Below, piece after piece: positions 28,979 through 36,059 of a DNA stretch of 64,000 nt. The notes beneath the pieces were generated by a model. The model had not been told where the DNA came from and searched no databases. It saw nothing but the letters and a program-made list of their open reading frames with translations. A program made the position numbers and the translations under genes. Each line of letters opens with the position of its first letter. Positions within the stretch are counted from its first letter, which is position 1. Source of the stretch: an uncultured delta proteobacterium (GTDB taxonomy: Bacteria > Myxococcota_A > Polyangia > Fen-1088); NCBI GenBank assembly GCA_963796685.1, contig CAWCMR010000013.1, positions 128,001-192,000 on the forward strand, read 5' to 3'.

Positions 28979-30254
28979 TTAATCCATCGCCTGCCGCACG
29001 CGCGCTTCCAGCTCGTCGACGGCGATCTCCGACTGCTGGCGCGTGGTCAGGTCGCGCAGGATGAGCTTGCCCGAGAGGATCTCGTTGTCGCCCACGATGA
29101 GGGCCAGACGCGCGCGCAGGGCGTCCGCGCGCTTGAGCTGCGCCTTGAGGCCGGCGTCGCGGTGCTCGATCTCGGTGCGGATGCCGGCAAGGCGCAAGCG
29201 GTGGGCGACGGGCAGGGCGAAGGTACGCGCCTTGTCGCCCAGGGCCGCGATGTAGAGGGTGAGGCCGGAGTCGAAGCTTTCCGCGGGCGCGGTCATGGCG
29301 AGGAGCAGCCGCTCCACGCCCAGGCCGAAGCCCATGGCCGGGACCTCGGGGCCGCCCAGGGACGACACCAGGCGATCGTAGCGGCCGCCACCGCACACGG
29401 TGTTCTGCGCACCCAGGTCGCCGACCTTGGCTTTGAGCTCGAAGATCGTGCCGGTGTAATAGTCGAGCCCACGCACGAGTCGCGGATCCAGGCGGCTCTC
29501 CACGCCCAGCGAGGCGAGGTGGCTTTGCACGGCCTCGAAGTGTTGCTTGGATGCGTCGCCGAGCACGTCGAGCAGGATGGGGGCCTGGGCGGCCAGGGCC
29601 TGTACGTCGGGATCCTTCGAATCGAGAATGCGCAGCGGGTTGGTGTCGAGCCGCTTGCGCGAAAACTCGTCGAGCTTGTCGGCGTGGGTCGTGAAGAAGG
29701 TACGCAAGGTCTCGCGGTAGGCCGTGCGCTCGTCGGGCGAGCCCAGGCTGTTGACCGCGACCTCAAGGTCGGAGGTCTTGATGCCGAGGTCGGCGAGCAG
29801 GGCGACGAGCATGGCGATCATTTCGGCGTCGATGGCCGGGCCAGGCAGCCCGAAGACCTCGGCGCCAATCTGGTGGAACTGGCGCAGTCGCCCGCGCTGG
29901 GCGCGCTCGTGGCGGAACATCGGGCCCATGTAGTACCAGCGCGTGACCGGCTCGCGGTTCCACTGCGAGCGCGAGATGTAGGCGCGGACCGCCGAGGCCG
30001 TCCCTTCGGGCCGCATGCTGACGCTGCTGCCGTCGCGGTCATCGAAGGTGTACATCTGCTTTTCCACCACCTCGGTGGCTTCGCCGACCGAGCGGGTGAA
30101 GAGCGGCGTGTACTCGAGGATGGGCGTGCGCAACTCGCGGTAGGCGAAGGCGTCGAGAAGGGTGCGCGCCTTCTCCTCGACGAATTGCCACTTCGCCACC
30201 TCGGGGGGCAGCACGTCGTTCATTCCTTTGACGTTCGGCGGGGAGCTCGTTCAC
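28979..30254 (-). CDS. hisS: Histidyl-tRNA synthetase (probable start GTG 30254 with an apparent +1 indel near 30243)
   Basis: KGMNDVLP, MRPEGTAS, MFRHERAQRGRLRQFHQ, LVRGLDYY, GGGRYD, GFGLGVERL. Confidence 0.95.
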
Positions 30255-30275
30255 GGCGGCTTTATAGCATCTCCT

Positions 30276-31025
30276 CTATTCCACGCGAACCACGGCGGCG
30301 CCAAGGCCAGCGACGACTTGTTCGCAGGCCCGAAGGACCGTGGCTTCGCCGCGACCGTCCAGGGTGATGAGCACCTTGTGGTCGACGGCATCGATGTGCG
30401 GGTAGGAACCGATGGCGACGTCAGGGAAGTCGGCCGCGGCTCGGTCGAGAACGTGGGCGATGGCGCCCTCGCCCTCGCGCGAATAGATGGCGCGACTGAA
30501 GAAGGGCGGGGCGGCGAAGCGATCGCGAATCATGGCGAACTTGCGCTGCATGATCGATGGCACACCGGGCAGGACGTAGACATTGCGATAGGCAACCACG
30601 GGCCAGCACGAATGGGAGACGCCTTCGCCGTAGATGAGGTTGGCGCCTTCGGGCACGTCGGCCATGCGCAGATCGCGCTCGAAGAAATGCTCCCCGCTGT
30701 AGGCGCGAATCATTTCGGCCAGGGCCGGGTCACGCACCACCGGCACCGAGAAGGCCGCGGCGATGGAGGCGATGGTCACGTCGTCGTGCGTGGGGCCGAT
30801 GCCCCCCGTGGTGAAGACCAAGTCGTAGGTTGCGGACAAGGCACGCACCGTGGCCGCGATTTCCGCCGGAACATCGGGAACGACCTCGATCCGGCGCACG
30901 GCCACGCCCAGCTTGCGCAGCTCGCGCACCAGAAACCGCGCGTTCTGCTCCTCGACTTTGCCGGAAAGAACCTCGTCGCCAATCACGACGATGGCGGCGG
31001 TGGGGCCTTGTCTGCTTTCACCCAT
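30276..31025 (-). CDS. CinA-like / molybdopterin-binding (MoCF-biosynthesis-fold) protein
   Basis: IGDEVLSG, TTGGIGPTHDDVT, LPGVP and IGSYP motifs. Confidence 0.85.
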   Translation of the reverse strand: MGESRQGPTAAIVVIGDEVLSGKVEEQNARFLVRELRKLGVAVRRIEVVPDVPAEIAATVRALSATYDLVFTTGGIGPTHDDVTIASIAAAFSVPVVRDPALAEMIRAYSGEHFFERDLRMADVPEGANLIYGEGVSHSCWPVVAYRNVYVLPGVPSIMQRKFAMIRDRFAAPPFFSRAIYSREGEGAIAHVLDRAAADFPDVAIGSYPHIDAVDHKVLITLDGRGEATVLRACEQVVAGLGAAVVRVE

Positions 31026-31061
31026 GGTTTGGGCGCAACCATACCGGGATTTGCGTGTCGT

Positions 31062-34000
31062 TCAAAACACCTCGGTCCAGGAAAAGCGGGTGAAGGCACC
31101 AGTGCCTCCATTGGGCGGGATGGCCCGTCCGGCCGTGACAGAATCCGGCACCAGGTTGGTAATCTCGATGGCCCCGCTTGAGCCGAACAGGTAGATGCGG
31201 CCTCCTAGAATTACCGGGGATGTGACGGGTTCGCTTGCCACGTCGGCACCTAACCGCTGCGTTACGCTACCAGTGGCCGACATTTGGTGGATAGTGAAAT
31301 AGGTCTGCCCTCTCGTGCAGCCGTCTACCGCAGGCACGTACCACATGGTCATGACCTGGAACCCGGACGCGTCCGCCAAGAGCACTCCGAGCGGGGTCGA
31401 TGTTGGTCGCGCATTCAGGGGCATGGAGGTCTGACACGTCACGTGGCCGTTCGAGTCGGTCTGCGTGACGCCACAGATCTCGCTGTCATTGCCCACGGTG
31501 AGCGTGATCATCCCGCCATTGCCCCAGGTCGTGTCCTTGACGATGCTAATAAATTTGCCGTTTGCGTCGGTTTGGGCGGTCTCTTTCCAGAAGATCATCT
31601 TGGACGGTGGCAACGCAGTGGTGTCGAGGTCGAGGTTGGAATTGGTCACTTGCACGGGGAAGATTTGGTGTCCGAACGCGGTGGTTGTCGAGTCTCGGTC
31701 AAGTTGAACGATGGTCGGGGAGAAGTGCAGGGGATGGTTGCAGGTTAGATTCTGGTCGAGGGTGAGTCCGGCGCCGAAGGCATAGCGGAAAAGCTGCCCC
31801 GACGTGTCGCCGAAATAGCCGGCCACGAGCTTGTCGTCCTGGCCCGTGGCGAAATCGCGGGCGGTGGCGACGTCGGTGAGCGCGGTGTACTCTTGCGTGC
31901 AGGTGGCGGTGGGAGCGATTGGGTCGGTCGTCAGAAGATTGCCTGAGGCGGCCGAGGCGGTCACCAGCGCTCGTCCTTGCGTGGTGCTGCCGCTTGTCAC
32001 CGGATAACCGGAGGCAAAGGTGACGCGATAGTCGTCCAGGCTGCTCGTCCTGTTGAGGAAGAAGGCGGGAAGGGAGATGGTGTTGCCGAGCGCGTTGCCG
32101 TAGGCGGAGGCACTGGCTCCATATCCGGTGTGCCACTGTACGGTGACAGGTGGGTCTGCGACGCCGGTGGGGCTGAATGGCGCCGACACGTCGAGCATGA
32201 AGGTGTTGGCGCCCCCATAGCCCTCGGGCATGATGAGCAGGGTCTTCCACACGGCGTTGGCAGCATCGCTGCAGTTCGTTACACACAGGGTCTTTGCCTT
32301 GGGTGAGTCTGCGAGGCCGAAAATGTGACTGTATGGGTCGGGTTTTTGTCCGCCCTGCGAGTACTGTTGGCGCACGATGGGCATCATGTCCGGTGGCAGA
32401 AAAGCGAAGGCTTCGCTCCCGGCCTGGTACAGCGTCGACCCGATGGTCGTGTCTTGCAGGAAGAACGCATGCAGGAGTCCGTCCGACGAACCCACATAGA
32501 TGAGGTGGGGGCGATTCTCGTATTTCAAGAAGTACTCATGTCCACCGGGTTCCGGCACGTCGCCCGGGCTCGCGATGTCGATGGGCGTCGAGTTGATGAT
32601 TGCCCCCAGGATGGACGGATTCTTGTAGGTTGGATCGCCTAGCAACCAGCGTGCGACGGATTCGGCCTCGATGTCCGACGCACCGAGGCCCATGGCGGCC
32701 AGCGTGGTCTTGTTGGTCACGGCATGGGTCGTGGGATCCACCGCGATCTTCACCATGTTTGTGCCATCCCACGTGTAGATCTTGCGCTGCCACCAATTCA
32801 TGGCCGTGAGCTTCTGGTAGGCGTCCCAAGACAGGACTGGCGAGGCGCCACTCAAATCGTAGGCCAAGAGATGGCCTTTCCATTCCGGAAAGTCCATACG
32901 CGAGTCGAGGGCATACTTGCCTTCGGCGACCGTGGTGGCCTGTTGCGTACCGGCCGAGGTGCTGGTGGGCGCGGTCGAGTAGCTGCCCTTGACCGCGTTG
33001 TAGATCACAAGCTGCAGGGCGGTGTTGAGGTCGTTCTCATTCTGGGCGAGGTAGGCGAAGGGGGCGACGCCGTCGTTGCCGGCATCCGTCCCCCCCGCCC
33101 GTGCGATATTGTCGTTGGTGGTCTTCGCCGTTCCCGAGCTGGTGTCGCCCGAAAAGCCCACCACGAAGGTCTTGACGCCGAGGTTTTGGCGCAGGTTGTA
33201 CGCGGCCAGGACCGCCCGGCAGGTACAACCTGCGGCGGCCGGATTCGTGGCCGCGCAGCCCGACGCGGAGCAGTTGCCGTCTCCTGGGCCATTGGCTTCG
33301 CCATCGGTGATGAGCAGAACATAGTTGTCGCGGCAAGCGAGGTGATCCTGCGGGACTCCCGCGCTCGAGTTGCCATTCTTCACCGCGTTCATGTAATCGT
33401 AGGCACTGGTGTTGATGGTTGGGGCCTTATCGTTCTGCAGCGTGCACCCGGTTGGCGTGCCCCAGTAGAAGATCAACCCGCCGTTGGCGGCTGGGGCCAT
33501 CGCTTGCGTGATGGCGGCGGCTGCAGTCTGCGAAACCGTCAGGTCGTCCGTCGTGCTGAGAAATGGAGCGAGCTGCGCATCCCAGCGCCCGCCACAGTCC
33601 GCGTCGCACGTGTTGCCACAGCCTGGAAAATCGAGTGGAGGTGCTTTGCCGCCGTTGTAGTAGTTGTTGAGCGGCTGGTAGTAACTGTAGTTCTTTCCGC
33701 CCACCGTGATGTTCTGCCCGCCATAGGTGGGTTGCGTGATCATGGTCGTCGAGTTGCTGCCGACGGTGCCCGTGTACTGATAGTAGGCGCCTTCGAATTG
33801 TCCCAACCCCACGGCGCCGGGCATGTCGCAGGTGCTTCCGCACCAATTGGCGTCGACTTCGATCCATGCGTTGGAATTGGAGCGTACGCGGTAGCGGCTG
33901 TTCGTCGAATCCTGCAGGGTCATGCTGATGCCGTTGAACGTACAGGCTTGAGCAGGTCCCGTGGCCTTGTCGAAGCAGTGCGCGGAGACGATCTTGTCTC

Positions 34001-36059
34001 CGGATTCGTAGACCGTGATGACCCCGGTGGAGCCCGATGTGCTCAGGTAGTAGGGGAAGTAGCCATTCTGGTAATAGGTCATCAGGCCAAAGTTCAAGAG
34101 CTTGTAGTTGTTGTTCACGACCCCACTGATCGCACGCTTGGCGATGACTGCGCGCGAGGTCGCCGGCCCACAGGCATCTCCGGCGGAGGTGCAGTCCGAG
34201 TCCTTCTTGCACACGGTCTGCGCAATCAGACACATGCGGATGGGGCCTGGCGTACCGTTGCTGCTTGGAACACAGGTGTCCGTGCTGCTCACGGGAAGGA
34301 CGCAAGGATTGGGTGGCGGGATGACGCAGATGTTCGTCGGCGCGCTACAGGTGTTCGTCACCGCCGTGCAGCTGTTGTCGGTCTTGGTCACGCACGTGTC
34401 TTGCGCCAGGTTGCAGATGTTGGCGGTGCCGTTGCACGTCTGGGCTGCGAAGACACAGGTTTGTGGACTGGAACACTTCATATAGCTGTTGTTGCACTTG
34501 TTGCCATTGCCGGAACAGGTACCGTAGGACGGTACAGGGCAGTCGGTGTCGATGCGGCAAGTTTCGCCTGTGGCGCTGCAGGTCATGTAGCTGGGGCAAT
34601 CGGTGCTTCCGGTGCAGCCATTCCTCGGGGTGCCCCCCAAACTACAGGTTCCGGTGGTCGCCGCCGGCGGGCAATCCGATGGCGATGAACAGGGCGTGGA
34701 GGTCGAGTGAGCGCACACATTGGCAGTCGGGCAGTTTCCGCCCGGGTTGGTGCAGGACATTTGGTTGTTGTATTTGCACTGTCCCAGCGAGGGACATGGG
34801 GTGTGGTCGTCGCAGGCCACGCCGGTGGTCGAGCAGCGGCTGGATTGTGACGGGCAATCCGAGTCCTTCGAGCAGTTGGTCTTGGAAGAAGCGCAAATCG
34901 TGTCGAGCGATGTCTGGGTACCGGTTCCGCTCTGGGTGTCGGTAGCCGTTTGGGTTCTGGTCGAGGTCTGGGTCCTGGTCGAGGTTTGGGTGCCGGTCGA
35001 GGTCTGGGTGGCAGTGGAAGTCTTGGTGGAGGTCGAGGTCTGGGCGCCCGAGAAGGTCCAGGTCTCGATGCGCGTGCCGGTGGCCGTGCCTGACTTGGTG
35101 GCAGTGGCGGGGACGATGTTCCACCAGACCAAGGAGTTGGTGGTCGTCCGAGCACGACTGGGCATGTAGACCGTGGCAATCCCGGTGGAGATGGCCGTGC
35201 CACTGACGGTCCCGGTCGCGGCGGAGAAGGTTTTCGTAACCGAGCCATTGTAGGTGGCGGTCACGTTGCTGGTGGCGATGGCACTCGCCCCGCCTGCGAT
35301 GTAGTCGGTCGTGGTGTATGTGTTCGTATACCACTCGGTATCCTCGGTATCGGAGGCCGTGTTCGTGCTGGTGATGGTGCCTGTGAGCGTCACGGTCGCT
35401 GTGGCCGTCGCTCTTTGAGTCGACGTGCCGGTATTGGTCACCGTCTGGGTGTTGGTCACGGTTTGGGTGTTGGTTACGGTCTGGGTGTTGGTCAGGGTCT
35501 GGGTGTCGGTCACGGTCTGCGTGTTGCTGATGGTCTGCGTACTCGTCGTGGTCTGCGTATTGGTCGTGGTCTGCGTGCAGCTCATGATGGGGACGGAGCA
35601 GACGCCGGGATCCTGCGGACAATCGTTGATGGACGCGCACTGGGTGGCACCATCCTCCTGGCAATAACCGTGGCGGCAGTCGTCATCCGATTGACAAGTT
35701 CTGCCCCACGCCTTGCACACCCCGAGCACCCCTCCGTTGCGGCAGTTGGAACCATTGTCGCAGTCCACCCCCACCTCGGTCGAGTTGGCGAACTGACCGC
35801 CGGGCACGCCGGTCATCGACCCGGAAGTGTCGAGCACGATGAGCATGTTGGCCTTGTGCAGTTGCCGCTCGATCACGACCAACGGGTTCACGCGGGCGAA
35901 GGAAGGGCGCGACGCCATGCAAGACCAGCTCACCAGCGCGACCACCATGGACGCAGCTGACAGGCGAGGTCGGCGCACCCCACGCAGCGTGCGTCTGCCG
36001 ACCCTGTTGCCTTGAGACTGTTTCACCCTTGTGTTCATCGACCGAAACCCGCTTCTCAT
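31062..36059 (-). CDS. pilY1: PilY1-like type IV pilus tip adhesin: split vWA domain with nested Cys-rich and Thr-rich insertion, plus C-terminal PilY1 beta-propeller
   Basis: Signal peptide; MIDAS IVLDTSGSM, later FGLMTY, GTPT, LLITDG, KTFVVGF; propeller motifs WKGHLLAY, LGAIINSTP, YVGSSDGLLHAF, EAFAFLP, GDTSGQLFR. The start may be a downstream Met. Confidence 0.75.
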   Translation of the reverse strand: MRSGFRSMNTRVKQSQGNRVGRRTLRGVRRPRLSAASMVVALVSWSCMASRPSFARVNPLVVIERQLHKANMLIVLDTSGSMTGVPGGQFANSTEVGVDCDNGSNCRNGGVLGVCKAWGRTCQSDDDCRHGYCQEDGATQCASINDCPQDPGVCSVPIMSCTQTTTNTQTTTSTQTISNTQTVTDTQTLTNTQTVTNTQTVTNTQTVTNTGTSTQRATATATVTLTGTITSTNTASDTEDTEWYTNTYTTTDYIAGGASAIATSNVTATYNGSVTKTFSAATGTVSGTAISTGIATVYMPSRARTTTNSLVWWNIVPATATKSGTATGTRIETWTFSGAQTSTSTKTSTATQTSTGTQTSTRTQTSTRTQTATDTQSGTGTQTSLDTICASSKTNCSKDSDCPSQSSRCSTTGVACDDHTPCPSLGQCKYNNQMSCTNPGGNCPTANVCAHSTSTPCSSPSDCPPAATTGTCSLGGTPRNGCTGSTDCPSYMTCSATGETCRIDTDCPVPSYGTCSGNGNKCNNSYMKCSSPQTCVFAAQTCNGTANICNLAQDTCVTKTDNSCTAVTNTCSAPTNICVIPPPNPCVLPVSSTDTCVPSSNGTPGPIRMCLIAQTVCKKDSDCTSAGDACGPATSRAVIAKRAISGVVNNNYKLLNFGLMTYYQNGYFPYYLSTSGSTGVITVYESGDKIVSAHCFDKATGPAQACTFNGISMTLQDSTNSRYRVRSNSNAWIEVDANWCGSTCDMPGAVGLGQFEGAYYQYTGTVGSNSTTMITQPTYGGQNITVGGKNYSYYQPLNNYYNGGKAPPLDFPGCGNTCDADCGGRWDAQLAPFLSTTDDLTVSQTAAAAITQAMAPAANGGLIFYWGTPTGCTLQNDKAPTINTSAYDYMNAVKNGNSSAGVPQDHLACRDNYVLLITDGEANGPGDGNCSASGCAATNPAAAGCTCRAVLAAYNLRQNLGVKTFVVGFSGDTSSGTAKTTNDNIARAGGTDAGNDGVAPFAYLAQNENDLNTALQLVIYNAVKGSYSTAPTSTSAGTQQATTVAEGKYALDSRMDFPEWKGHLLAYDLSGASPVLSWDAYQKLTAMNWWQRKIYTWDGTNMVKIAVDPTTHAVTNKTTLAAMGLGASDIEAESVARWLLGDPTYKNPSILGAIINSTPIDIASPGDVPEPGGHEYFLKYENRPHLIYVGSSDGLLHAFFLQDTTIGSTLYQAGSEAFAFLPPDMMPIVRQQYSQGGQKPDPYSHIFGLADSPKAKTLCVTNCSDAANAVWKTLLIMPEGYGGANTFMLDVSAPFSPTGVADPPVTVQWHTGYGASASAYGNALGNTISLPAFFLNRTSSLDDYRVTFASGYPVTSGSTTQGRALVTASAASGNLLTTDPIAPTATCTQEYTALTDVATARDFATGQDDKLVAGYFGDTSGQLFRYAFGAGLTLDQNLTCNHPLHFSPTIVQLDRDSTTTAFGHQIFPVQVTNSNLDLDTTALPPSKMIFWKETAQTDANGKFISIVKDTTWGNGGMITLTVGNDSEICGVTQTDSNGHVTCQTSMPLNARPTSTPLGVLLADASGFQVMTMWYVPAVDGCTRGQTYFTIHQMSATGSVTQRLGADVASEPVTSPVILGGRIYLFGSSGAIEITNLVPDSVTAGRAIPPNGGTGAFTRFSWTEVF
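34893..35579 (-). repeat. Intragenic 18-nt repeats encoding two arms of eight TQTxTx hexapeptides around a ~130-aa spacer
   Basis: TQTTTN TQTTTS TQTISN TQTVTD TQTLTN TQTVTN x3 ... AQTSTS TKTSTA TQTSTG TQTSTR x2 TQTATD TQSGTG TQTSLD, bracketed by Cys. Confidence 0.9.

Follow-up and report, generated by a model that had tools for sequence, protein, structure and literature searches.

A modular cysteine-rich insertion in a PilY1-like protein of an uncultured myxobacterium may form a disulfide-runged hairpin stalk

The window analyzed here is a 64,000-nucleotide stretch of DNA from an uncultured delta proteobacterium (GTDB lineage Myxococcota_A; Polyangia; Fen-1088), positions 128,001 to 192,000 of the forward strand of contig CAWCMR010000013.1 in assembly GCA_963796685.1. 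Its minus strand carries a gene for a PilY1-like protein with a vWA-like domain, whose DxSxS motif of the MIDAS type (metal ion-dependent adhesion site) is followed by a long Cys- and Thr-rich insertion. Within the insertion lie nine three-Cys modules and then nine single Cys, and the two series may be the outward and return strands of a stalk cross-braced by disulfides. The features of the gene are collected in Table 1.

Table 1. Features of the PilY1-like gene, with positions in the window and residues of the encoded protein (aa, amino acids). Strand assignments within the stalk are proposed.
Feature	Position	Strand	Basis or remark
Whole gene, 1665-aa PilY1-like protein (P0001)	31062..36059	-	Open reading frame; 165 homologues, many with precomputed PF05567
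DTSGS, MIDAS-type DxSxS, residues 77-81, end of first vWA-like strand	35817..35831	-	
Conserved Cys pair C100/C106, foot of stalk	35742..35762	-	Also in stalk-less relatives such as P0141
Outward strand: modules 1, 2 and start of module 3 (C154, C161), residues 113-161	35577..35723	-	
N-arm of Thr-rich insert, residues 162-220, T-x-T-x repeats	35400..35576	-	18-bp array, 8.2 copies, 35430-35577
Conserved ~116-aa domain between the arms, residues 221-336	35052..35399	-	No Pfam or PDB match
C-arm of Thr-rich insert, residues 337-388	34896..35051	-	18-bp array, 7.8 copies, 34908-35048
Outward strand continued: C389, rest of module 3, modules 4-9, residues 389-529	34473..34895	-	
Return strand: nine single Cys in x4-N-x-C heptads, residues 530-596	34272..34472	-	
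Linker and self-contained base unit C610-x6-C617-x5-C623-x6-C630	34170..34271	-	At every stalk length including n=0
Rest of vWA-like domain: SRAVIAKRA helix, LNFGLMTY, VLLITDGEANG, FVVGFSG	33030..34169 (approximate)	-	Motif order
Second large conserved insertion, part of the vWA-like remainder	within 33030..34169	-	
C-terminal PilY1-type beta-propeller region	31065..32762 (approximate)	-	Family profiles match PDB 3HX6

The protein can be placed in the PilY1 family by profile and through its relatives. A homologue search with residues 631-1665 returned 165 proteins, many with PF05567 and some named as Polyangia proteins of the PilC/PilY family. The profile of 91 family members (A1) matches the C-terminal domain of Pseudomonas aeruginosa PilY1 (PDB 3HX6) with E=1.1e-13, and that of 15 short-loop members (A2) matches the same structure with E=3.6e-24. 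Three relatives exceed the Pfam cut-off of 28.1 bits for T4P_PilY1 (PF05567): P0141 (40.5 bits), P0124 (35.1 bits) and P0133 (28.7 bits). The query alone, searched whole and in parts, gave no T4P_PilY1 and no usable Pfam or NCBIfam match. A WS_DGAT_cat match in the Pfam scan (E=8.2) was discarded as noise, and a PDB search with the C-terminal 1035 aa alone returned only myotilin (E=0.021), also judged to be noise.

The N-terminal domain is likely vWA-like, as indicated by the order of its motifs (DTSGS, LITDGEANG and FVVGFSG) and by weak Pfam matches (VWA_CoxE with E=0.041 and 13.8 bits in the query, VWA_2 with E=0.042 in P0223). No vWA chain was matched in PDB searches with profiles A1 and A2. 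The D, T, S, G and S of DTSGS are invariant across 91 sequences. A second large conserved insertion lies in the same domain between LNFGLMTY and LITDGEANG (residues ~660-920, ~33300-34080 on the minus strand) and has conserved Cys of its own, including C-x3-C and C-x3-C-x3-C.

The Cys pattern had been picked out in an earlier note made from the letters alone, which placed it at 34170-35723. These coordinates correspond to residues 113-630, and all nine of the modules it quoted are found as written, at C115/122/128, 133/141/147 and 154/.../396/402 (modules 1-3), C409/416/422, 428/436/443 and 449/457/463 (modules 4-6), and C472/482/488, 494/501/507 and 515/522/529 (modules 7-9). The modules have the form C-x6-10-C-x5-6-C, with the consensus G-x-C-x6-C-x2-D-x-D-C-P. 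Also located were the nine single Cys (535, 542, 549, 556, 564, 571, 578, 586 and 596, with gaps of 7, 7, 7, 8, 7, 7, 8 and 10), the intact four-Cys unit at C610/617/623/630 and the MIDAS-type motif. Two Cys pairs were missing from that account: i) module 3 holds five Cys rather than three, the additional C161 and C389 being, by alignment, an extra pair in the loop between its first and second Cys (C1 and C2), where they flank a 227-aa Thr-rich insert (residues 162-388); and ii) ahead of module 1 lies the conserved pair C100/C106. Six of the nine return heptads have a conserved Asn or Asp at position -2 from the Cys (N547, N562, N569, N576, N584 and D594). The base unit, C-x6-C-x5-C-x6-C, closes with D-x-C as the return heptads do, and it resembles a module plus one return heptad, in agreement with the idea that each module is part of a four-Cys unit.

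The framework is conserved among relatives. Both anchors of the insertion could be placed in 135 proteins of at least 900 aa, and 94 of these have 42-46 Cys between the anchors. After later additions 102 sequences passed a nine-module filter, and removal of the irregular P0159 and P0160 left 100. In the alignment of these, 42 framework columns have Cys in at least 95% of sequences, except for the first Cys of module 9, for which the aligner used two columns instead of one in the P0078 clade. The framework persists down to about 40% stalk identity. This conservation, together with the contrast between 44 Cys in residues 100-630 and 20 in the remaining 1035 residues, argues that the pattern is not due to chance. 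Between C1 and C2 of module 3 the additional pair is found in 29 of the 100 relatives, and P0059 has another, local pair in module 7.

Such a high Cys density and the regular C-x6-C-x5-C spacing might also be expected of metal ligands, for Zn or Fe-S clusters, rather than disulfides. Conserved Asp/Asn, Gly and Pro surround the Cys, as is typical for small disulfide knots, and weigh against metal binding. So do the lack of a conserved His, the even Cys counts of most members, an N-terminus that resembles a Sec signal peptide (by eye, unscored) and the extracellular location of PilY1 proteins given in the article text of a myxobacterial survey (PMC13190605). Metal coordination is therefore highly improbable.

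If each single Cys on the return strand is bonded to one module on the outward strand, the two numbers should change together. Relatives of differing loop length were drawn from a library of 50%-identity representatives and parsed by hand. Modules and returns number 0/0 in P0141, 1/1 in P0133 and P0085, 2/2 in P0142 and P0146, 7/7 in P0125 and P0126, and 9/9 in the 100 sequences; one further clade has six modules, a large insert and six returns. The counts thus agree at five stalk lengths (1/1, 2/2, 6/6, 7/7 and 9/9). A grammar with position weights and gap lengths trained on the 9/9 set only, and with the module number left free, gave equal numbers of modules and returns as the best parse in eight of nine clean-case proteins, with two parses of 1/1, two of 2/2 and four of 6/6 (P0133, P0085, P0142, P0146, P0124, P0136, P0144 and P0145). 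The ninth, P0132, was parsed as 7/3, narrowly ahead of 6/6. This tally excludes P0275 (6/7), P0141, in which there is nothing to parse, and the misfit proteins described below. Grammar outputs were not used as evidence for P0125, P0126, P0001 and P0012, which have extra Cys in the frame, or for the two-module clade with tip units (P0128, P0131, P0137, P0139, P0140 and P0154).

The same chain could run out and back with purely local disulfides. Neighboring modules would then share bonds, the return Cys would pair among themselves or lie free, there would be no rungs and the insert might be compact. Parity permits this arrangement, with 27+9, 18+6 or 6+2 Cys, and a total divisible by four was rejected as proof of nesting since plain rungs or local pairs give equal parity. 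Why each module should have its own return Cys at five different lengths is left unexplained by local pairing.

The position of foreign domains provides the clearest sign of an out-and-back chain. In one clade a Laminin_G_3 domain sits exactly between module 6 and return 1, at the predicted turn; Pfam detects it in P0124 (residues 270-427, E=1.9e-15) and as three stretches in P0132. Five of six tip-domain proteins have exactly 18 Cys before the inserted domain zone and 6 after it, the sixth (P0275) having 19 and 6. The gap lists of four loci (L066, L067, L070 and L071) likewise show six modules and six returns, and L069 has one extra Cys. An insert in the loop of a folded domain must also bring its two ends together. 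In the seven-module P0125 and P0126 a foreign domain of roughly 200-250 aa is found between modules 1 and 2, lateral and near the foot; a Pfam scan of this domain in P0125 gave no family.

A register between the two strands emerged from covariation. Mutual information with average product correction was calculated on the nine-module alignment and averaged over blocks of module by return. With 100 sequences (effective number 64) the antidiagonal sum is 0.131, compared to 0.003 ± 0.038 for random one-to-one assignments (p=0.0006), and the Spearman correlation with distance from the antidiagonal is -0.61 (permutation p=0.0003). The signal is stable over five parameter settings (p=0.0006-0.003), and the antidiagonal blocks are about as strong as those between sequence-adjacent modules. 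Offsets 0 and +1 are equally high, which pairs module k with either return 10-k or return 11-k. Enlarging the alignment to 123 sequences (effective number 79) lowers p to 6e-5, and p is 0.0057 without the four blocks nearest the turn; mean-field direct coupling analysis gave p=0.00075 and 0.046. Because it is the assignments that are permuted, the test largely accounts for shared ancestry. P0032 and P0041 have each gained one Cys in the module 5 loop and one between returns 4 and 5, which supports the same register, the model having set that loop opposite those returns. Local pairing explains neither the antidiagonal band nor this joint gain. Counts, turn position and register thus give indirect, comparative support to the antiparallel layout of the earlier note and its putative disulfide ladder; for its description as telescopic no support was obtained.

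Several observations weigh against a runged hairpin. When modules 8-9 and returns 1-2 are left out of the 100-sequence alignment, covariation reaches only p=0.03-0.1. The sequences are related, and symmetric exchange of segments could give the same band; only a mirror-symmetric exchange would mimic it, and such an exchange itself presupposes a nested layout. The 6/6 proteins form one clade and count as one event. Parity alone proves nothing, as it allows pairing between neighboring modules, and P0147 has an odd count of 11 Cys. An unpartnered Cys occurs four residues before C100 in 21 sequences of the P set (22-26 in the merged 123-sequence alignment). Sequences with this Cys (e.g., P0028, P0030 and P0033) have an odd stalk count and 20 body Cys either way; it appears to be a free thiol or to form an intermolecular bond.

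The remaining difficulties come from misfit proteins. The prediction that homologues have as many modules as return Cys at any length held at the five lengths above, with P0075, P0134, P0130 and L030 as misfits. For the long stalk of P0075, the grammar favors 10 modules plus 26 singles (score 152.9) over 14+14 (138.5). The four distal triplets are thus atypical, and '14/14' rests on gap periodicity and the total of 56; a search for relatives with the P0075 stalk returned 74 proteins and no second long-stalk member. P0134 has 12 modules, 11 returns and three extra Cys, with no longer gap in the return strand opposite the extra unit. In L030 the tip and the foot each have an extra Cys; these two could not meet in a rod and would be easier to pair in a compact fold. 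In P0130 (3021 aa) the segment between the anchors holds 198 Cys. It comprises two large inserted domains, about 30 C-x2-3-C-x7-C-x5 units in tandem and a run of some 19 single Cys with a six-residue period, too few for the module-return rule, and it resisted parsing. P0139 mixes three- and four-Cys units and has too few return Cys for its tandem three-Cys array. In P0139 and P0130, therefore, three-Cys units can also be satisfied locally. These arrays without matching returns, the two extra Cys of L030 and the self-contained four-Cys tip units of P0131, P0137 and P0140 speak for local disulfides. With the matched counts and the register on the other side, local pairing throughout the stalk is unlikely.

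The stalk has likely grown at the turn. P0075 aligns with nine-module relatives over modules 1-7 and the foot-proximal returns, and its extra material is one central block containing a second copy of the G-T-P-x-x-G-C module. The return strand may also have grown by local duplication, as hinted by a 21-bp tandem repeat within it (34326-34376; 2.4 copies, 73% matches) whose unit is one Cys heptad. The tips of the two-module clade carry self-contained four- or two-Cys units without new returns (P0128, P0131, P0137 and P0140). The Cys of the P0128 unit are C2- and C3-like only and come without an additional return, as expected if C2-C3 is a local bond and C1 pairs with a return. Growth by nested rather than tandem duplication, as had been proposed, is thus correct in part only: it fits the central block at the tip of P0075 and not the tandem tip units (P0128, P0131, P0137, P0139 and P0140) or the arrays of P0130.

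The Thr-rich insert in module 3 shows a second matched pair. Its N- and C-arms flank a conserved domain, and a PDB search with a ~126-aa stretch around that domain returned only a ciliary protein (E=0.64, judged noise). The N-arm/C-arm lengths are 59/52 residues in the query, 61/58 in P0271, 111/111 in P0016, 122/121 in P0011, 128/125 in both P0012 and P0015, and 164/160 and 52/46 in the same-genus orthologues from G010 and G002. The arms are thus length-matched in all eight sequences measured, from 46 to 164 residues. The insert of a further orthologue, from G008 (110/111), matches that of P0016, and hence it was not counted separately. Matching over a threefold range of length suggests that the arms pair as a second out-and-back element, closed by C161-C389. 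This arm-length matching is new here. Among same-genus orthologues the protein ranges from 1447 aa without the insert up to 1890 aa.

Additional observations were made on Thr-rich segments. Besides the window, length-matched arms were seen in P0011, P0012, P0015, P0016, P0271, L014, L015 and L016. Three relatives (P0162, P0174 and P0177; 34-37% identity) have long Thr-rich linkers around one or two domains in the corresponding loop; a Pfam scan of P0162 found nothing. Over the gene (30001-36000) the GC skew rises, to 0.153, and the AT skew is negative, which fits a minus-strand gene rich in ACC and ACG Thr codons.

That the stalk is disulfide-bonded, rod-shaped and adhesive, and how far it reaches, is inferred from the observations above. 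The protein would be a secreted PilY1-type adhesin, with a vWA-like domain followed by the PilY1 propeller, in which the loop just past the MIDAS DxSxS is expanded into a hairpin. The chain would run outward via nine small three-Cys knobs and turn, and its way back would be an extended strand rich in Pro and Asn in which every heptad has one Cys. Each return Cys k would be bonded to the opposite knob, module 10-k, making one rung per knob. Within a knob, C2-C3 would probably be a local bond and C1 the rung, as hinted by the P0128 tip unit and the base unit. The foot would consist of the four-Cys unit and the Cys pair. The ligand-binding face of the vWA-like domain would thereby gain a stiff mast able to resist proteases and force; with the 62 residues of its return strand fully extended, the mast could be about 20 nm long. 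In our estimate the probable architecture (probability about 0.7) is such a mast on the MIDAS face, a hairpin with disulfide rungs. An ESM Atlas look-up with residues 389-640 gave no usable match and no model.

The mast could serve as both spacer and display platform, with Laminin-G domains of lectin-like type at the tip in the sister clade. Proteins of the window's clade would have a side branch from module 3, with two length-matched Thr-rich arms, a C161-C389 closure and the ~116-aa end domain. A broader proposal is that the family has a two-tier evolvable mast: a hairpin with equal numbers of knobs and heptads (0-9, perhaps 14 or more) and a side branch of probably zipped Thr-rich arms, both following a mirror-image growth rule. 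This is tentative and has, in our view, slightly less than an even chance of being correct.

The genomic setting bears on where the protein acts. The neighbors of the gene are a CinA-like gene, HisRS, an ACT-domain gene and GlnD, and none of the 15 N_methyl matches in the genome is on the window's contig. The linkage to pilin genes (fimU/pilV/pilW/pilX) that is a PilY1 feature is thus absent from the window copy. Among 55 related loci, all from uncultured metagenome-assembled genomes, 17 have a prepilin motif in the 4-kb flanks, 12 of them with a 42-44-Cys stalk. Another 29 parsed loci, listed as lacking a pilin motif and including close relatives, have no prepilin motif within 4 kb. Pilin-like genes lie immediately upstream of distant members with the 9/9 stalk; those of L050 match N_methyl (three times), PilW (40 bits) and PilX_N (24.6 bits, just below the cut-off). 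The family therefore includes true pilus-operon PilY1 genes, and the window copy is unlinked.

The 'pilus-tip' location named in the earlier note thus applies at the level of the family and finds no backing in the neighbors of this gene. The protein could instead be a free-standing surface or secreted adhesin that shares only ancestry with PilY1. Its neighbors, the contig free of N_methyl matches, the 29 loci and the query's own lack of a T4P_PilY1 match in Pfam all point that way. Against it, distant 9/9-stalk members such as L050 do adjoin pilin-like genes, and unlinked pilY1 genes are reported in the article text of the survey to be common in Myxococcota (PMC13190605), so that pilin linkage is not strictly defining. 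A free-standing adhesin is the less likely alternative; it concerns the location of the protein and not the architecture of the stalk.

The window's genome, searched with the stalk (residues 389-630), yielded the gene itself as the sole match. A paralogue of the whole protein (L002; contig 25 of G000, 1014339-1017104, minus strand) lies in an open frame of 2042 aa and shares 36% identity over the body; two pilin-like N_methyl matches lie ~10 kb from it. Its corresponding loop has Thr-rich stretches and a different Cys pattern.

PilY1 decides the adhesion targets and force sensing of type IV pili, and its N-terminal parts are poorly understood. A stiff mast of adjustable length, with lectin-like domains that can be swapped, would reveal how adhesins come to differ in reach and specificity. 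As an instance of nested (concentric) disulfide topology in nature the mast would be unusually large, and it could inspire stable protein scaffolds. If the two-tier form is correct, uncultured Polyangia-type myxobacteria would possess a length-tunable scaffold that holds binding domains tens of nanometers beyond the pilus tip.

Among known systems, PilY1/PilC (PF05567, 3HX6) is the closest. The C-terminal region is homologous by profile, the N-terminal part is vWA-like with a DxSxS motif, and some family members are in pilW/pilX-type operons. The query differs in its 518-residue Cys- and Thr-rich insertion after the MIDAS loop, in falling below Pfam detection on its own and in being unlinked to pilin genes. 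The article text of a survey of PilY1 in 67 myxobacterial genomes (Front Microbiol 2026; PMC13190605) describes Cys-rich clades (1.3 and 1.5-1.7) with median Cys numbers of 30-41 and 5-20 predicted disulfides, which were proposed to stabilize extended extracellular domains. These share the vWFA plus propeller architecture, and their clade medians of at most 41 Cys compare with 65 here. Such medians may fit one- to three-module forms, in which the stalk contributes 10-18 Cys and the body about 20. None of the terms stalk, insertion, hairpin, rod, elongated and protru- appears in the article text of the survey, and literature searches, run alongside a look-up of these terms in that text, found no description of such a PilY1 stalk.

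Cystine ladders of three rungs are found in theta-defensins and in Chlamydomonas HAP2 (PMC6327110). There too, antiparallel strands are cross-braced by parallel disulfides, and the HAP2 motif is likewise a loop insertion; these ladders span 18-37 residues of plain strands, as opposed to the 9 (possibly up to 14) rungs proposed here. The present stalk differs further in having one strand made of three-Cys knobs, a variable number of units and foreign domains as cargo. It is a ~290-residue insertion in a 1665-aa protein and not a small cyclic peptide of 18 residues like a theta-defensin. In the Cys-rich domains of the tumor necrosis factor receptor and the Cys-rich regions of EGFR and the insulin receptor, disulfide modules with sequential local pairing are stacked into a stiff one-way rod. 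The rod proposed here differs from these eukaryotic receptors in having to return to its origin by a dedicated return strand. Integrin beta subunits have a nested layout as well, with the beta-I domain inside the hybrid domain inside PSI. There the vWA-type domain with its MIDAS is the inserted one, whereas here the vWA-like domain is the host. By its sequence, the protein is best seen as a member of a known adhesin family with an undescribed, modular and putatively nested-disulfide insertion.

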